Shown piece after piece: positions 2,822 to 38,751 of a DNA stretch of 64,000 nt (position 1 is its first letter; every line of letters begins with the position of its first letter). The notes beneath the pieces are model-generated. The model saw only the letters and a list, made by a program, of their open reading frames with translations. It did no database searches and had not been told where the DNA came from. This DNA is from a virus. Made by a program: the position numbers and the translations under genes. The stretch is from positions 1 to 64,000 of IMG/VR virus record IMGVR_UViG_3300016482_000025; one strand, written 5' to 3'.

Positions 2822-2970
2822 TACTTCCTCTTATAAACGGACATATCCTTGTAATCAACAGAAAAACCTTTATCCTGCCACTCTTCCAGAAAGATAAAAG
2901 CGGCATTTTGATCGTTGAAAGTTTCACGACGAATAAGCTTGCGACCATTGAACACGGAAACTTGGTGCAT
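2821..2970 (-). CDS. hypothetical protein
   Basis: Start moved to ATG 2970 (MHQVSVF) with GGAGA upstream, because promoter 2996-3024 lies inside the longer ORF. Confidence 0.4.
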   Translation of the reverse strand: MHQVSVFNGRKLIRRETFNDQNAAFIFLEEWQDKGFSVDYKDMSVYKRK

Positions 2971-2995
2971 TGTCTTTCTCCGCTCTATGAGAATG

Positions 2996-3024
2996 TTTAT
3001 ACCAGACCAAACAAGTCTTGTCAA
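2996..3024 (-). promoter_or_regulatory. sigma70-type early promoter
   Basis: Minus strand TTGACA, 17 nt, TATAAA. Confidence 0.6.
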
Positions 3025-3026
3025 CA

Positions 3027-3287
3027 CTAATAGTAATACTTATCCTTGAAAACCGCATTCGGGAAAATAGATTGAAGCGCAGTCTTGATATGGGCATCGG
3101 TAATATTCCGGTCCATATCATAAGCCTCTTTCGCAATTCCCGTTTGATGTGCTACAAGCCAAGCATCACTACCAGTCTTCACATCACCCAAAGAAAGCTT
3201 CTGAATAGGCCGCGCAGCAAGCCACGCAGCACACTTGATACGCCAACGGCTAACGGTATCCTTATCAATCTTCGCCATTGTCTTCAT
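3027..3287 (-). CDS. hypothetical protein
   Basis: 86-aa ORF downstream of promoter 3304-3331. Confidence 0.5.
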   Translation of the reverse strand: MKTMAKIDKDTVSRWRIKCAAWLAARPIQKLSLGDVKTGSDAWLVAHQTGIAKEAYDMDRNITDAHIKTALQSIFPNAVFKDKYYY

Positions 3288-28509: not shown

Positions 28510-28596
28510 GCCCGAATGGCGGAATGGCAGACGCGGCGCGCTCAAAACGCGCTCCCTTCGTGGGTGGGGGTGGGGGTTCAAGTCCCTCTTCGGGCA
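28510..28596 (+). tRNA. tRNA-Leu (anticodon CAA), class II
   Basis: Acceptor GCCCGAA/TTCGGGC; anticodon arm GCGCG-CTCAAAA-CGCGC; long variable arm; T loop TTCAAGT; CCA encoded at 28597-28599; own promoter 28471-28499. Confidence 0.85.
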
Positions 28597-29135: not shown

Positions 29136-29210
29136 GGCCGTTTAGTCCAATCGGTAGGAGACAAGGCACTTAAAATGCTAACAGTATCAGTTCGAATCTG
29201 ATAACGGCTA
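29136..29210 (+). tRNA. tRNA with anticodon UAA (Leu codon family) but class I architecture
   Basis: Acceptor GGCCGTT/AACGGCT (G1-U72); anticodon loop CTTAAAA; 5-nt variable loop; T arm ATCAG-TTCGAAT-CTGAT; CCA encoded; promoter 29099-29127. Confidence 0.65.
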
Positions 29211-30097: not shown

Positions 30098-30190
30098 GTC
30101 GGGTGAGTCTAGGGGTCTAGAGAGAATCCATAGGAATTGCGATGGGGGATTCCATAAGCAATCATTGCCGTTCAAATCGGCAACCCGGCT
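30098..30190 (+). ncRNA. 93-nt tRNA-like RNA with no identifiable anticodon arm
   Basis: Acceptor GTCGGGT/ACCCGGC; T arm TGCCG-TTCAAAT-CGGCA; CCA encoded; the interior folds as TCTA-GGGGTC-TAGA and GAATCC-17 nt-GGATTC instead of D and anticodon arms. Confidence 0.45.
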
Positions 30191-30208
30191 CCATTTTAGG
30201 ATTATATT

Positions 30209-31740: not shown

Positions 31741-31833
31741 TGGCGTGTAGCTCAATTGGCAGAGCGGTGGCCTTATACTCCACGTATGCACTAGATTGGT
31801 GCGCGGTTGCAGGTTCAAGTCCTGCCACGCCAA
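31741..31833 (+). tRNA. tRNA with anticodon UAU (Ile AUA) and a 25-nt variable region
   Basis: Acceptor TGGCGTG/CACGCCA; D arm GCTC-AATTGGCA-GAGC; anticodon loop CTTATAC on a 4-bp stem plus a C-U mismatch; T arm GCAGG-TTCAAGT-CCTGC; CCA encoded; 93 nt. Confidence 0.6.
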
Positions 31834-31838
31834 CCATT

Positions 31839-32027: not shown

Positions 32028-32032
32028 ATAGC

Positions 32033-32061
32033 TTGACAGAATACCCTCTTTAGTGTAGGGT
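32033..32061 (+). promoter_or_regulatory. sigma70-type promoter for sRNA candidate 32066-32188
   Basis: TTGACA, 17 nt, TAGGGT. Confidence 0.45.
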
Positions 32062-32065
32062 AACA

Positions 32066-32188
32066 TAGTAGGGACTAAGAAAGAGTAACCGAGACAACTT
32101 TCTGAATGGATAGACAAGTGTTGATGCTGGCAGCCGTTAAATGACCTTCTCAGGTCTTGCATCATCGTCCAAGTCCCTGCCTTTTTTT
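32066..32188 (+). ncRNA. about 120-nt small RNA candidate with its own promoter and a T7 run
   Basis: Promoter 32033-32061; TAGGGAC (32069-32075) pairs with GTCCCTG (32173-32179), followed by CC and TTTTTTT; no ORF. Confidence 0.4.
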
Positions 32189-32199
32189 AGGATTTAATA

Positions 32200-32325: not shown

Positions 32326-32460
32326 AACAGATTGAGTAGCTAACAATCATGTCAGGCAGGGGATAATTTATAAACTATAACAGGTTGCCACCCATGGAAG
32401 AGTGGTTGTAAAACGAATAATTCCTGATGTTTTTAAAAATCCCCGTAAGAATACCGCGCT

Positions 32461-32548
32461 TGGCCCGTCGCGGGATATAAGTCTTCGGGGTGAGGGTTGA
32501 CACCACAGGTCCAATCTGTTATATGTCAGCAGTAAGCTAACGGGCCAG
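32461..32548 (+). ncRNA. 88-nt tRNA-like candidate inside a 229-nt GC-rich spacer
   Basis: TGGCCCG pairs with CGGGCCA, followed by G, CCA and GTTTT exactly as after bona fide tRNAs here; an ACAG-GTCCAAT-CTGT hairpin looks like an anticodon arm but D and T arms are aberrant. Confidence 0.3.
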
Positions 32549-32566
32549 CCAGTTTTGGAGTTTGTC

Positions 32567-32935
32567 ATGGAAAATATTAGTGAATTGAATACTTCTGAGC
32601 TTAAACGTAAGTATCGTGAAGCACAAGAGCTTTCCAAGAAAATTGAACAAGAAGTAAACAAGCGTCATGAAGAAGAGCTTGTTGAAAGTAACCGTGTAAT
32701 TACAGAACAACCTATTGCTCAATTTGCAATTAAGCTTCATAATAAGTTTTGTAAGTGGAATCATACTGATGGTTGCTCTTGGCATTATGAAATGGTAAAT
32801 CGTGAGCATGATTGGTCGCGTGATGAACATCGTAGATGGATGAATAAAGCTATTAATTTGGATATGCGTCTAAAAAATGGTGTAACGATTAATAGCGAAA
32901 ACTACTTCGATATTGTTGACAAGCTGATGCCATAG
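32567..32935 (+). CDS. hypothetical protein
   Basis: Start moved to ATG 32567 after GGAG. Confidence 0.5.
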   Translation: MENISELNTSELKRKYREAQELSKKIEQEVNKRHEEELVESNRVITEQPIAQFAIKLHNKFCKWNHTDGCSWHYEMVNREHDWSRDEHRRWMNKAINLDMRLKNGVTINSENYFDIVDKLMP

Positions 32936-32944
32936 TGCTATAAG
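32916..32944 (+). promoter_or_regulatory. sigma70-type promoter for the 118-nt tRNA-like RNAs
   Basis: TTGACA, 17 nt, TATAAG; the RNA 5' end (32954) lies 9 nt downstream. Confidence 0.55.
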
Positions 32945-32953
32945 GATATACAT

Positions 32954-33071
32954 GGGGAGGGCGAGGTTAGCGGCGACGGCTGCTTTCGAGGAAGACGTTT
33001 CTCTTGCTGGTTTGGTGAAGCCTCTGGCCCTGTATGGAGCCAGGACGGGGGTTCAAGTCCCACCCTCCCCA
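32954..33071 (+). ncRNA. 118-nt tRNA-like RNA (acceptor stem plus T arm only), copy 1
   Basis: GGGGAGG/CCTCCCC 7-bp terminal helix; GGACGGGGGTTCAAGTCCCAC T arm; starts about 10 nt after the -10 box of promoter 32916-32944; no cloverleaf interior; no encoded CCA. Confidence 0.5.
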
Positions 33072-33080
33072 ACAATTTTT

Positions 33081-33198
33081 GGGTATGATGCTAGAGTGTT
33101 CGATTCACTCAAAATTCCCTTGTGGAATTTCCTGGGCGGTATAAAAGCTACGGTAACAAGGCTCGCGACCTTACTTGGTTCAATTCCAAGCATACCCA
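33081..33198 (+). ncRNA. 118-nt tRNA-like RNA (acceptor stem plus T arm only), copy 2
   Basis: GGGTATG/CATACCC 7-bp helix; T arm CTTGG-TTCAATT-CCAAG; CCA encoded; interior has a second T-arm-like hairpin GAGTG-TTCGATT-CACTC and a 7-bp hairpin AAATTCC-CTTGT-GGAATTT. Confidence 0.5.
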
Positions 33199-33220
33199 CC
33201 ATTTTTGAAGGAATTATATT

Positions 33221-33688
33221 ATGGAAAACGCGACCAAAATTTATATTGATTATTCTTCTTATACTACCGTAACAAATTCTGCCGATCCTGATGACGAATG
33301 GGATCGTGATGATACTTCAACGGATTATTACGTTAATGGTTTAACTTTAGAACCTAACGGTTCTTTTGAGTATTGTTATTATCCAGGCGAAGTGAAGGAA
33401 GGTGATAAGATTTATCTAGTTTATGCAGTCTATTCTACTGGTGATAGTTTTCATCGTGACGAAAGAGGTTGTATTGACTTTGTTGGAGTTTACAAGGATA
33501 AGGCTACTGCCGATTTAGTGGCTCATGTTCTTGAAAAGCATTCTACAGAAGATAACATGTATGGTGAAGCCAAGTGGACAGCTAAGATTGTTCTTGACAA
33601 TGGCACCGAATATGACTATCATGTTGGATGGGTTGGTTATTTTGAACACCTTGATTACATTAGTGTTGAGGAATTTATTGTTCGATGA
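33221..33688 (+). CDS. hypothetical protein
   Basis: GAAGGAATTATATTATG initiation region; 155 aa. Confidence 0.5.
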   Translation: MENATKIYIDYSSYTTVTNSADPDDEWDRDDTSTDYYVNGLTLEPNGSFEYCYYPGEVKEGDKIYLVYAVYSTGDSFHRDERGCIDFVGVYKDKATADLVAHVLEKHSTEDNMYGEAKWTAKIVLDNGTEYDYHVGWVGYFEHLDYISVEEFIVR

Positions 33689-34188: not shown

Positions 34189-34614
34189 ATGAAACAAAGA
34201 CATAACAATTTTACAGATGAAGAATTAATAGAAGCATATAATGAATTAAAACATTTGGGGAAAATAGCACATAAATTTAAGGTTCCTCATATACAAATTT
34301 GGCGTAAATGTCAAAAATTAAATTTACATTTTAAAAATGGTGGTAATAACGAAAAAATTAATCTAAATGAAATTTTAGAAGGTTTTCATGGTTATTATCC
34401 AACAAATAAATTAAGAAAACGAATAATAAAAGAAAAAATATTACCTTACGAATGTGCGAAATGTGGTATTCACAAATGGAATGGTTGTGATATAGTGCTT
34501 CAATTAGATCATATAAATGGTGAATCAACAGACCATAGGTTAGAAAATTTGAGATTGTTGTGTCCTAATTGTCATTCTCAAACTGATACATGGTGTGGAA
34601 AAAATAAGGGCTAG
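34189..34614 (+). CDS. HNH homing endonuclease
   Basis: QLDHINGESTDHRLENLRLLCPNCHSQTD; low GC; paralog of the gene at 28578-29093; last 7 nt overlap tRNA-Tyr. Confidence 0.8.
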   Translation: MKQRHNNFTDEELIEAYNELKHLGKIAHKFKVPHIQIWRKCQKLNLHFKNGGNNEKINLNEILEGFHGYYPTNKLRKRIIKEKILPYECAKCGIHKWNGCDIVLQLDHINGESTDHRLENLRLLCPNCHSQTDTWCGKNKG

Positions 34615-34955: not shown

Positions 34956-35039
34956 GCGGGTGTAGCTCAGTGGTTTAGAGCGTCGGTCTTCCAAACCGAA
35001 GGCGAATAGGTTCCGTGGGTTCGAATCCCACCATCCGCT
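34956..35039 (+). tRNA. tRNA-Gly (anticodon UCC) with a 15-nt variable region
   Basis: Acceptor GCGGGTG/CATCCGC; D arm GCTC-AGTGGTTTA-GAGC; anticodon arm TCGGT-CTTCCAA-ACCGA; T arm GTGGG-TTCGAAT-CCCAC; CCA encoded; 84 nt. Confidence 0.7.
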
Positions 35040-35048
35040 CCATTGTTT

Positions 35049-36829: not shown

Positions 36830-37444
36830 TTGTATTACACAATCTATAAAATAACAAATAAAATTAACAATAAATTCTATATTGGAATGCATAAAACCAA
36901 AAATTTAAATGATGGTTATATGGGTTCTGGTAAACTCTTGAAACGTGCTATTAAAAAACACGGAATTGAAAACTTTATTAAAGAAATTCTATTCATTTTT
37001 GATAATGAACAGGATATGATTAATAAAGAAAAAGAATTAGTAGAAGTATCAGAGCAATCTTATAACCTTTGTGAAGGTGGTAAAGGTGGTTTTGGTTTTA
37101 TAAATGCTAATGGTCTTGGTGGAACACTTGGTTATAAATGGAGTGATTATTATAAAAATCATTTTAGAAAAAAAGCACAAGAACAATATGAAAAATGGAC
37201 TGATGAAGATTGGAATAATCATTCTTCACAAATAAAAAATGGAATAATAAACCGTAAACCATCATTTCTTGGTAAAAAACACACAGAAGAAACCAAACAA
37301 AAAATGAGAAAATCTAAAAATATTGGTATAAAAAATCCAAGTTTTGGTTCTATGTGGATTACTAATGGAATAGATAACAGGAAGATAAAAAAACTTGAAA
37401 CCATTCCTGATGGGTGGTATAAAGGAAGAAATAAGGGGTCTTAG
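36830..37444 (+). CDS. GIY-YIG homing endonuclease
   Basis: YYTIYKITNKINNKFYIGMHKT...GYMGSG; NUMOD3-like GKKHTEETKQKM; low GC; the last 10 nt overlap tRNA-Ala. Confidence 0.8.
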   Translation: MYYTIYKITNKINNKFYIGMHKTKNLNDGYMGSGKLLKRAIKKHGIENFIKEILFIFDNEQDMINKEKELVEVSEQSYNLCEGGKGGFGFINANGLGGTLGYKWSDYYKNHFRKKAQEQYEKWTDEDWNNHSSQIKNGIINRKPSFLGKKHTEETKQKMRKSKNIGIKNPSFGSMWITNGIDNRKIKKLETIPDGWYKGRNKGS

Positions 37445-38678: not shown

Positions 38679-38751
38679 CTGTGTGTAGCTCAGTTAGGAG
38701 AGTGCTGGTTTTGGAAACCAGAGGTCGTTGGGGCAGGACCAACCACGCAGA
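38679..38751 (+). tRNA. tRNA-Pro (anticodon UGG), non-canonical T loop
   Basis: Acceptor CTGTGTG/CACGCAG; anticodon arm CTGGT-TTTGGAA-ACCAG; T arm GTTGG-GGCAGGA-CCAAC lacks TTC; CCA encoded. Confidence 0.65.

Follow-up and report, generated by a model that had tools for sequence, protein, structure and literature searches.

In the 64,000-nt stretch of viral DNA analyzed here (the window; positions 1 to 64,000 of IMG/VR virus record IMGVR_UViG_3300016482_000025), two adjacent 118-nt elements lie 9 nt apart at 32954–33071 (copy 1) and 33081–33198 (copy 2), within the transfer RNA (tRNA) cluster of a T4-type myovirus. Both probably specify tRNA-derived stable small RNAs, processed by RNase P and carrying non-decoding payloads, and not pseudogenes; judged by their sequences, they are analogues, not homologues, of the T4 RNAs C and D. 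An earlier note on this DNA had given the same coordinates and spacing, and it was also right about the acceptor stems (GGGGAGG...CCTCCCC in copy 1 and GGGTATG...CATACCC in copy 2), the CCA encoded after copy 2 (33199–33201), and a second T-arm-like hairpin in copy 2 (GAGTG-TTCGATT-CACTC, 33094–33110). Its description of the elements as two copies does not hold, since they share no sequence or architecture beyond the acceptor/T-arm minihelix and have separate homologues, those of copy 1 on the short metagenomic phage contigs L024 and L025, and that of copy 2 on L059, an unrelated 109-kb IMG/VR contig. Both RNAs sit in the 285-nt gap between the open reading frames (ORFs) 32555–32935 and 33221–33688, where the following features were located:

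32916–32944 (+), promoter-like TTGACA-17(TGn)-TATAAG, with the −35 at 32916–32921 and the −10 at 32939–32944
32954–33071 (+), copy 1, a 118-nt RNA, from its fold and homologues
32954–32961 with 33063–33070, copy 1 acceptor stem of 8 bp
32962–32988, copy 1 hairpin A
32992–33005, copy 1 hairpin B
33013–33023, copy 1 hairpin C, with the GGUGAAGCC motif
33025–33042, copy 1 hairpin D
33048–33062, copy 1 T arm of 3 bp plus G·A, loop UUCAAGU
33071, copy 1 discriminator A
33072–33080 (+), 9-nt spacer or trailer ACAATTTTT / ACAAUUUUU, encoding no CCA
33081–33201 (+), copy 2, 118 nt plus CCA, from its fold, the L059 homologue and covariation
33081–33087 with 33191–33197, copy 2 acceptor stem of 7 bp
33094–33110, copy 2 T-loop-like hairpin H1
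33112–33130, copy 2 capped 7-bp hairpin H2
33131–33153, copy 2 conserved D-loop-like segment CCUGGnnGGUAUnnnnnnUACGG
33158–33172, copy 2 hairpin H3 of 4 bp, with the 7-nt loop CUCGCGA
33174–33190, copy 2 T arm
33198, copy 2 discriminator A (CCA at 33199–33201)
33221–33688 (+), ORF of 155 aa, starting 19 nt after the CCA behind the junction TTTTTGAAGGAATTATATTATG

Neither ARAGORN nor the Rfam scan that the earlier note had proposed called either element a tRNA: ARAGORN found nothing in its default mode, nor at the default threshold with introns allowed, and the Rfam tRNA model RF00005 had no match either in 451 nt searched at E ≤ 10 or in the cluster at E ≤ 1. Lowering the threshold with introns allowed produced calls that disagree among homologues (e.g., -io -ps80 read the three copy 1 homologues as Gln(ttg), Leu(gag), and Pyl(cta)), and the suggestion of tRNAs with insertions of about 45 nt gained no support, as no consistent cloverleaf or anticodon was recovered. 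The outer end of both elements is tRNA-like. When compared with a 7-bp acceptor, a 5-bp T stem (7/5), a UUCRAnn loop, a discriminator and CCA, copy 2 is perfect, and copy 1 has one G·A mismatch or can be read with an 8-bp acceptor and a 4-bp T stem (8/4). When the window was scanned strictly for perfect acceptor stems directly adjoining a perfect T arm (loop UUCRAnn), 11 sites were found, whereas 200 shuffles averaged 0.385; nine of the sites are called tRNAs, the remaining two are copy 2 and an element at 30098–30189, and copy 1 was missed through a single G·A pair in its T stem. The fold z-scores against shuffles were −2.4 and −2.3, and both elements are GC-rich islands (63% in copy 1 and 46% in copy 2 vs. 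37% in the window). The view that only the top half of a tRNA is kept is too simple, especially for copy 2. This RNA does have D-like and anticodon-like hairpins, which are not at tRNA spacing.

The copy 1 homologues (L024 1781–1896 and L025 368–483) were found via homologues of ORF 33221–33688. L024 is otherwise collinear with the window at 76–88% DNA identity, and each of the two contigs has one RNA, aligning with copy 1 and located 5' of the ORF homologue. As MAFFT alignments were out of register with the structure, manual alignments, nhmmer and our own pair counts were used instead. All three RNAs have the same eight helical elements: an 8-bp acceptor (consensus GGGGAsGG / CyyUCCCC) is followed by a 2-bp clamp leading into the long, tetraloop-capped hairpin A, then by hairpins B, C, and D (the short hairpin C carrying a conserved GrAGCCU), a T arm with a 4-bp stem and a UUCRArU loop, the discriminator A and, in the homologues, a conserved AACA(A/U)UUU trailer. 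The 8/4 branch is perfect in L024 and L025 and consists of 8 bp, then 3 bp plus an outer G·A, in the window; in a 7/5 reading the window T stem becomes GGGGG/CCCAC with one G·A mismatch, and it is the 8-bp acceptor and 4-bp T stem that the homologues fit. Standard pairs fill 101 of the 106 pair cells of the family (vs. ~50% with the 3' partner slid), 14 pairs have changes in both partners, and L024 and L025, which align well, differ by double swaps at CG/UA and AU/GC in hairpin B and at GC/UA and UA/GC in the T stem. These compensatory pairs, together with the interruption of the spanning ORF in the relatives, argue that copy 1 is neither a pseudogene nor a protein gene.

Within each of these RNAs, hairpins A and B repeat one motif, which is the self-complementary UCUAGA in L024 and L025 and GACG in the window, where loop B has a CGUU able to pair with the GACG in loop A. 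A loop-loop contact, or a dimeric binder, is in better agreement with the repeat than decoding, a lead that comes from three sequences only. Pattern scans of IMG/VR, JGI metagenomes, and GTDB with the copy 1 motifs yielded either no match or only ordinary tRNAs and bacterial tRNAs bearing inserts. Separately, tRNAs with a ~38–43-nt insert in the anticodon region were observed at L047 129–244 (a JGI metagenome contig), L050 4262–4373, and L051 3146–3258 (the latter two being bacterial metagenome-assembled genomes, Thiodiazotropha and Desulfobacteraceae); they score 47–68 bits in Rfam and have the trailer AACAUUUU as in copy 1.

The sole homologue of copy 2 (L059 1631–1755, minus strand) lies in a dense tRNA array between tRNA-Leu and tRNA-Arg, 5 nt from the latter, and was found by luck in a locus fetched for another purpose; a copy 2 motif scan returned L059 only, and an earlier scan mostly adjacent tRNA pairs. 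Common to both RNAs are an AUG after the acceptor, the T-loop-like hairpin (UUCGAUU), an H2 of 6–7 bp, the motif CCUGGnnGGUAUnnnnnnUACGGUrA, an H3 of 4 bp with the loop CUnnnRA placed 1 nt 5' of the T arm, the 7/5 branch, and the encoded CCA. All 54 pair cells are paired (54/54), and 18 of 26 pairs are changed on both sides, including 6/7 in the acceptor and 4/4 in H3. Identity is 31% in the paired and 68% in the unpaired columns, the conserved unpaired parts being the loops and the CCUGGnnGGUAU...UACGGU motif. Since the stems changed in pairs while the unpaired motifs were kept, copy 2 appears to be a functional structured RNA. The covariation check thus found compensatory changes in both families, which speaks against the decayed pseudogenes that the earlier note had considered.

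Copy 2 is absent from the nearest relatives L024 and L025. Compared with L025, it has the appearance of a 127-nt cassette placed between ...AACAAUUUU and GAA(AA)GGAAUUAnAUUAUG; this putative cassette is flanked by AUUUUU on both sides, and the junction that follows it (CCA, a U-run, and GAAGGAAUUAUAUUAUG / GAAGGAATTATATTATG) is the same as that after tRNA-His in the window. Inside the RNA, a single nt separates H1 (5 bp and the T loop) from H2 (7 bp, capped), and the two could stack into a second, closed “minihelix” of 12 bp; directly 3' of H2, with no gap, follows a D-arm-like helix whose loop holds GGUA. From H2 onwards, copy 2 may be read as a permuted cloverleaf in which the outer acceptor/T helix takes the place of the variable region, which hints at an origin of the family from a tandem tRNA pair and is not evidence of decoding. 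The permuted “inner tRNA” itself was rejected, as ARAGORN reports it only at a 90% threshold and with different anticodon arms in the homologues, and these arms are at odds with the covarying H3. Between copy 2 and L059 the H3 loop triplets are not the same (CGC vs. UCG), and the spacing is incompatible with an L-shape. In addition, a 133-nt 8/4 element was seen at L095 2344–2476 (+), with an internal T-loop-like hairpin (GGGGU-UUCGAUU-ACCUC), a feature that copy 2 has as well, and a different helix order.

The promoter proposed earlier for this pair is backed by its geometry, which equals that of the first tRNAs of the sub-clusters. It overlaps the 3' end of ORF 32555–32935, ends 9 nt 5' of copy 1, and is omitted by the promoter scanner on account of a G, not T, at position 6 of its −10. 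The signals in front of the tRNAs, of the general form gTTGACA-17-TATAnn, are:

tRNA-Leu at 28510, gTTGACA-17-TATATA, 10 nt upstream
tRNA-Leu at 29136, TTGACA-17-TATAGT, 8 nt upstream
tRNA-Gly at 34956, TTGACT-17-TATATA, 10 nt upstream
tRNA-Ala at 37435, TTGAAA-17-TATAAA, 11 nt upstream

Because the same promoter signal stands at the same distance, copy 1 seems to be set up for expression in the manner of a leading tRNA.

The acceptor/T-arm helix is the unit recognized by RNase P, the 3'-trimming enzymes, and the CCA-adding enzyme. Both RNAs possess it as a 12-bp coaxial helix with a UUCRAnU T loop, and since it is kept, the host tRNA-maturation enzymes should excise them and give them stable tRNA-like ends. 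They would be transcribed with and like the phage tRNAs from the TTGACA-17-TATAAG site, starting a few nt before copy 1; the CCA of copy 2 would already be present in the transcript, and copy 1 would require trimming of the AACA trailer. In the body that the two acceptor strands enclose, conserved hairpins and single-stranded motifs specific to each family stand in for the D and anticodon arms, and they are taken as the functional payload. Copy 1 has four hairpins on an 8/4-type scaffold, and copy 2 would be a remodelled tRNA-like dimer with an outer open minihelix, an inner capped acceptor-like/T-loop pair, and one D-like and one anticodon-like hairpin. We favor a payload that binds or titrates a tRNA-recognizing protein, either a phage factor or a host enzyme of the defence or toxin type, over one that regulates by base pairing; a role in protein titration or as a decoy is plausible.

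A more specific version of this idea, which we consider a long shot, is that copy 2 and L059 are “two-headed” tRNA mimics, resembling domain-swapped tandem tRNA dimers, which together with the 8/4 copy 1 could act as a decoy or sponge. One head would be the outer, open acceptor/T minihelix ending in CCA, the other the inner 12-bp stack of H2 and H1 with its end capped, and both would share one D-like and one anticodon-like hairpin. The targets would be host enzymes whose attack or sensing is directed at the acceptor end or the elbow of tRNAs, for instance nucleotidyltransferase, pyrophosphokinase, and acetyltransferase toxins, anticodon-independent nucleases, or RNase P-dependent sensors. If true, it would represent a new class of RNA-based anti-defence.

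Several observations weigh against stable, non-decoding RNAs. The families are tiny (three and two sequences). Hairpins A, B, and D of the window were aligned to the relatives by position and not by sequence, and with structure-guided hairpin alignments the covariation counts arise partly by construction. Hairpins A and B of window copy 1 diverge strongly from those of L024 and L025; with these divergent hairpins and the outer T-stem G·A it could be drifting. The TTGACA-17-TATAAG site is not kept in L024 and L025; the conserved promoter of L024 lies ~48 nt upstream and would leave a leader for removal by RNase P. No partner protein was identified, and the model of ORF 33221 has no PDB fold match and offers no clue. 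Finally, hairpin B of L024 and L025 can show a 7-nt loop, UUCUAGA, with the anticodon CUA, and the H3 loops of copy 2 and L059 both read CUnnnRA.

These last loops are what a functional non-canonical tRNA, either aminoacylatable or decoding, would be expected to show, an alternative that we hold to be unlikely. Copy 1 would then be an 8/4 allo-tRNA-like species, acting as an amber suppressor in the relatives, and copy 2 a tRNA in which a two-hairpin insertion of 43 nt separates the acceptor from the D arm. The 8/4 branch and the tetraloop-capped long hairpin after the acceptor match allo-tRNA or tRNA-Sec-like species (PMC5389517), but two hairpins are found where one variable arm is expected, and the lengths are 112–121 nt. 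The compensatory stem changes around the UUCUAGA loop of L024 and L025 also fit a tRNA, yet hairpin B of the window has no 7-nt anticodon-type loop (CGUUUC, 6 nt, or GACG, 4 nt), and the putative anticodons are not kept within either family, with CUA vs. none in one and the two H3 triplets in the other. The GGUA-containing D-like loop and the 4-bp hairpin with the CUnnnRA loop in copy 2 and L059 point in the same direction, as do other tRNAs with odd extra arms in this phage; however, the anticodon-like stems have 3–4 bp only, and a single nt separates H3 of copy 2 from the T arm. For the window, neither the tRNA nor the tRNA-Sec model of Rfam yields a match; the latter has none for the copy 1 homologues either, and the tRNA model matches L024 off-register only (17 bits, E = 9.4), while ARAGORN calls appear only at lowered thresholds and conflict between homologues.

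Stable small RNAs with a payload also account better for the conserved body than a cis-acting role in processing or punctuation of the messenger RNA (mRNA) of ORF 33221–33688, in which the tRNA-like fold would recruit RNase P and 3' processing and define or stabilize the mRNA 5' end, the excised RNA being functionless. A minihelix or an ordinary tRNA would suffice for this, and ~75–85 nt of conserved covarying structure and single-stranded motifs would stay unexplained. The proposal draws on copy 1 or its homologue standing directly 5' of the ORF or its homologue in 3/3 related genomes, and on the repetition of a junction of tRNA, T-run, and ribosome-binding site before several ORFs of the cluster. 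The L059 homologue, however, is followed by a tRNA and not by an ORF, and more distant homologues of the ORF have no RNA upstream; we therefore regard this explanation as quite improbable.

It is very unlikely that the elements are tRNA pseudogenes in decay or debris left by recombination of tandem tRNA genes. The T arm of copy 1 differs by one base from those of the phage tRNA-Leu genes (GGGGGTTCAAGTCCCTC), H1 of copy 2 resembles the T arms of the phage tRNA-Thr genes, and the lack of copy 2 in the nearest relatives would also suit debris. Decay, on the other hand, does not explain compensatory double substitutions with kept loops across phages that have no other detectable DNA similarity, intact acceptor/T helices and an encoded CCA in copy 2, or a dedicated promoter with tRNA-like geometry. 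That the stretch codes for protein, as an uninterrupted ATG ORF across both elements (32952–33272, 106 aa, its ATG overlapping the 5' end of copy 1) might imply, can be set aside almost entirely: a TAG closes the frame after 8–14 codons in L024 and L025 where the RNA structure is kept, the ORF overlaps the conserved start of ORF 33221, and its ATG has no ribosome-binding site 5' of it and lies just past the −10 (32939–32944), at the expected transcription start.

The homologues of ORF 33221–33688 in L024 and L025 share 71% and 60% amino-acid identity with it and stand directly after the copy 1 homologue. The protein has no Pfam or PHROG match; its AlphaFold model is confident (predicted local distance difference test, pLDDT, 93), and this model, for which the PDB holds no match, suggests that the family has a new fold. 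As a side observation, distant homologues (L031–L034, L028, L040) adjoin genes for a PTH2 peptidyl-tRNA hydrolase, an RF-1 domain protein, and a CCA-adding enzyme, as well as tRNA arrays. IMG/VR searches with flanking proteins from two neighboring ORFs returned nothing, and an ATPase search gave relatives at ~50% identity only, without the RNAs. Searched with BLASTN, 50,697 phage genomes contained no homologue of the region or of either element, only T-arm-sized tRNA matches.

The window belongs to a T4-type myovirus and codes for a gp23-like capsid protein, gp46/47-like nuclease subunits, a UvsW-like helicase, RNA ligase A, and an Alt-like ADP-ribosyltransferase. The closest cultured match of the capsid protein is Stenotrophomonas phage DLP6 (72.6% identity), no nucleotide-level match of the window was found in the INPHARED phage collection, and the first 50 kb of DLP6, with the capsid-to-replication genes that border the cluster in the window, have no annotated tRNA. 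The plus-strand tRNA cluster extends over 28.5–38.8 kb with small ORFs in between and has 13 tRNAs by ARAGORN plus one by Rfam at 38679. Within it lies a 141-aa HNH endonuclease ORF (34189–34614, plus strand) with 3955 database homologues (E ≤ 0.001), which is probably a free-standing homing endonuclease like segB of the T4 tRNA region; as a synteny marker, this neighbor was discarded for being too widespread.

Further features of the cluster were noted. A third tRNA-like element of 96 nt (30098–30193, plus strand) lies 11 nt 3' of tRNA-Gln and has the acceptor GTCGGGT/ACCCGGC, the T arm TGCCG-TTCAAAT-CGGCA, U73, CCA, and two CUAG motifs; default ARAGORN and Rfam do not call it, and ARAGORN at a lowered threshold reads it as tRNA-Ser(gga). 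The plus-strand tRNA-Ile(UAU) at 31741–31836 (96 nt) has a long variable arm and tRNA-Gly(UCC) at 34956–35042 (+) a 13-nt extra arm, such class-II-like arms being unusual on Ile and Gly isoacceptors; UAU is the predominant anticodon of allo-tRNAs (PMC5389517). Two non-coding plus-strand regions (~32030–32190 and ~32326–32552) are 93–94% identical to L024, compared with 76–88% for the adjoining ORFs, and have no Rfam match. A TTGACA promoter and a terminator-like end (GGCAG...CUGCC-U7) make the first a candidate small RNA of ~140 nt, and the second is GC-rich and structured and terminates in a TTGACA-17-TATATG promoter. Moreover, a module boundary made of CCA, a T-run, and (G)AAGGA(A)TTATATTATG is repeated after 30193, 33201, 35518, and 37510, each time joining a tRNA or tRNA-like gene to the next small ORF; it is likely a common translation-initiation region and possibly a substrate for cassette shuffling.

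In a wider survey, 149 fetched loci (1.56 Mb, 1437 ARAGORN tRNAs) were screened for acceptor and T-arm elements of at least 100 nt that ARAGORN does not call. This gave ~20 distinct elements, many ending in ACCA or UCCA, of which chance would account for perhaps a handful. About half have a normal D arm and a 20–64-nt insert and are tRNAs by Rfam or ARAGORN -i; elements in L059, L086, L095, and L129 are among those without a D arm. The survey suggests that acceptor and T-arm elements of 100–145 nt that are missed by tRNA finders recur in phage tRNA clusters. Phage tRNAs with canonical acceptor, D, and T arms and a 50–64-nt insert were seen at L039 1107–1231 and 1483–1607 and at L089 9907–10043 (−). 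Their inserts share CCUUUGUC ... GAUGGUUAUC and could be either an intron or a permanent arm, and Rfam scores the tRNA with the insert looped out. Further 8/4-type tRNA-like genes uncalled by ARAGORN occur in IMG/VR phage tRNA clusters (L059 1947–2030 on the minus strand, L058, L065, L069), for example GGAAGATG...CATTTTCC GCCA, in agreement with reports of 8/4 tRNA-Ser in phages. As a caution, the “intergenic” gaps of phage tRNA arrays hide structured RNA genes.

Among known RNAs, copy 1 resembles transfer-messenger RNA (tmRNA) in its GGGG... 5' end, in a T arm of the form GGACGnGGGUUCRAnUCCC joined to the acceptor, and in having no anticodon arm. The Rfam tmRNA model matches it weakly (17.3 bits, E = 0.0011, gathering score 47), gives no such match in L024 and L025, and ARAGORN -m is negative. 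A tmRNA identity was rejected, given that the 3:70 pair is G-C and not G·U, that there is no tag ORF or pseudoknot, and that the length is 118 nt vs. ~350 nt; the weak match reflects a generic tRNA-like end. Another likeness is to YrlA, mascRNA, and tRNA-Other, small stable RNAs that use the enzymes or partners of tRNAs by mimicking a portion of one. YrlA carries its tRNA-like module internally and has the Ro-binding stem at its ends, whereas in both elements here the RNA's own ends form the acceptor stem, and neither matches the YrlA model RF02553 in Rfam. Allo-tRNAs are similar to copy 1 in the 12-bp branch split 8+4 (perfect in L024 and L025) and in the tetraloop-capped long hairpin right after the acceptor. 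They differ in that the copy 1 family is 112–118 nt long, has two hairpins (C and D) in the V region in place of a single long variable arm, and lacks a conserved 7-nt anticodon loop. Phage tRNA clusters do contain 8/4 tRNAs, including tRNA-Ser and tRNA-His, some of them suspected of non-translational roles (Mukai et al. 2017, PMC5389517).

Among the options named by the earlier note, T4 RNAs C and D are the closest precedent, as an analogy; no sequence homology to rnaC or rnaD was detected: nhmmer profiles of both families searched against the T4 locus (L001) gave weak tRNA matches only and nothing at 2909–3172. RNAs C and D have been known for some fifty years with their function unexplained, and they are cut from a dimeric precursor by tRNA-processing nucleases. 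RNA C (species 1, 139 nt) and RNA D (species 2, 119 nt) are adjacent at the end of the tRNA cluster, on the tRNA strand; their function is still unexplained in recent literature (PMC9697503). The 3' 91 nt of rnaC form a 7-bp acceptor-like stem and a perfect T arm with a non-CCA tail, UACA, and are called tRNA-like by ARAGORN with introns. Differences are the 48-nt 5' extension of rnaC outside this tRNA-like part, the lack of a T arm or acceptor helix in our scan of rnaD, and the internal architectures, namely the 8/4 scaffold of copy 1 and the inner capped minihelix of copy 2. What corresponds is position and size, that is, two adjacent RNAs of ~120–140 nt in the tRNA cluster of a T4-type phage. 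A distant T4-type phage would provide two more families of small RNAs with tRNA ends, independent in sequence from those of T4, in which the homologues and compensatory changes define the conserved payload of each family, and comparable constructs are now at hand for questions of RNase P and CCA processing, charging, and binding.

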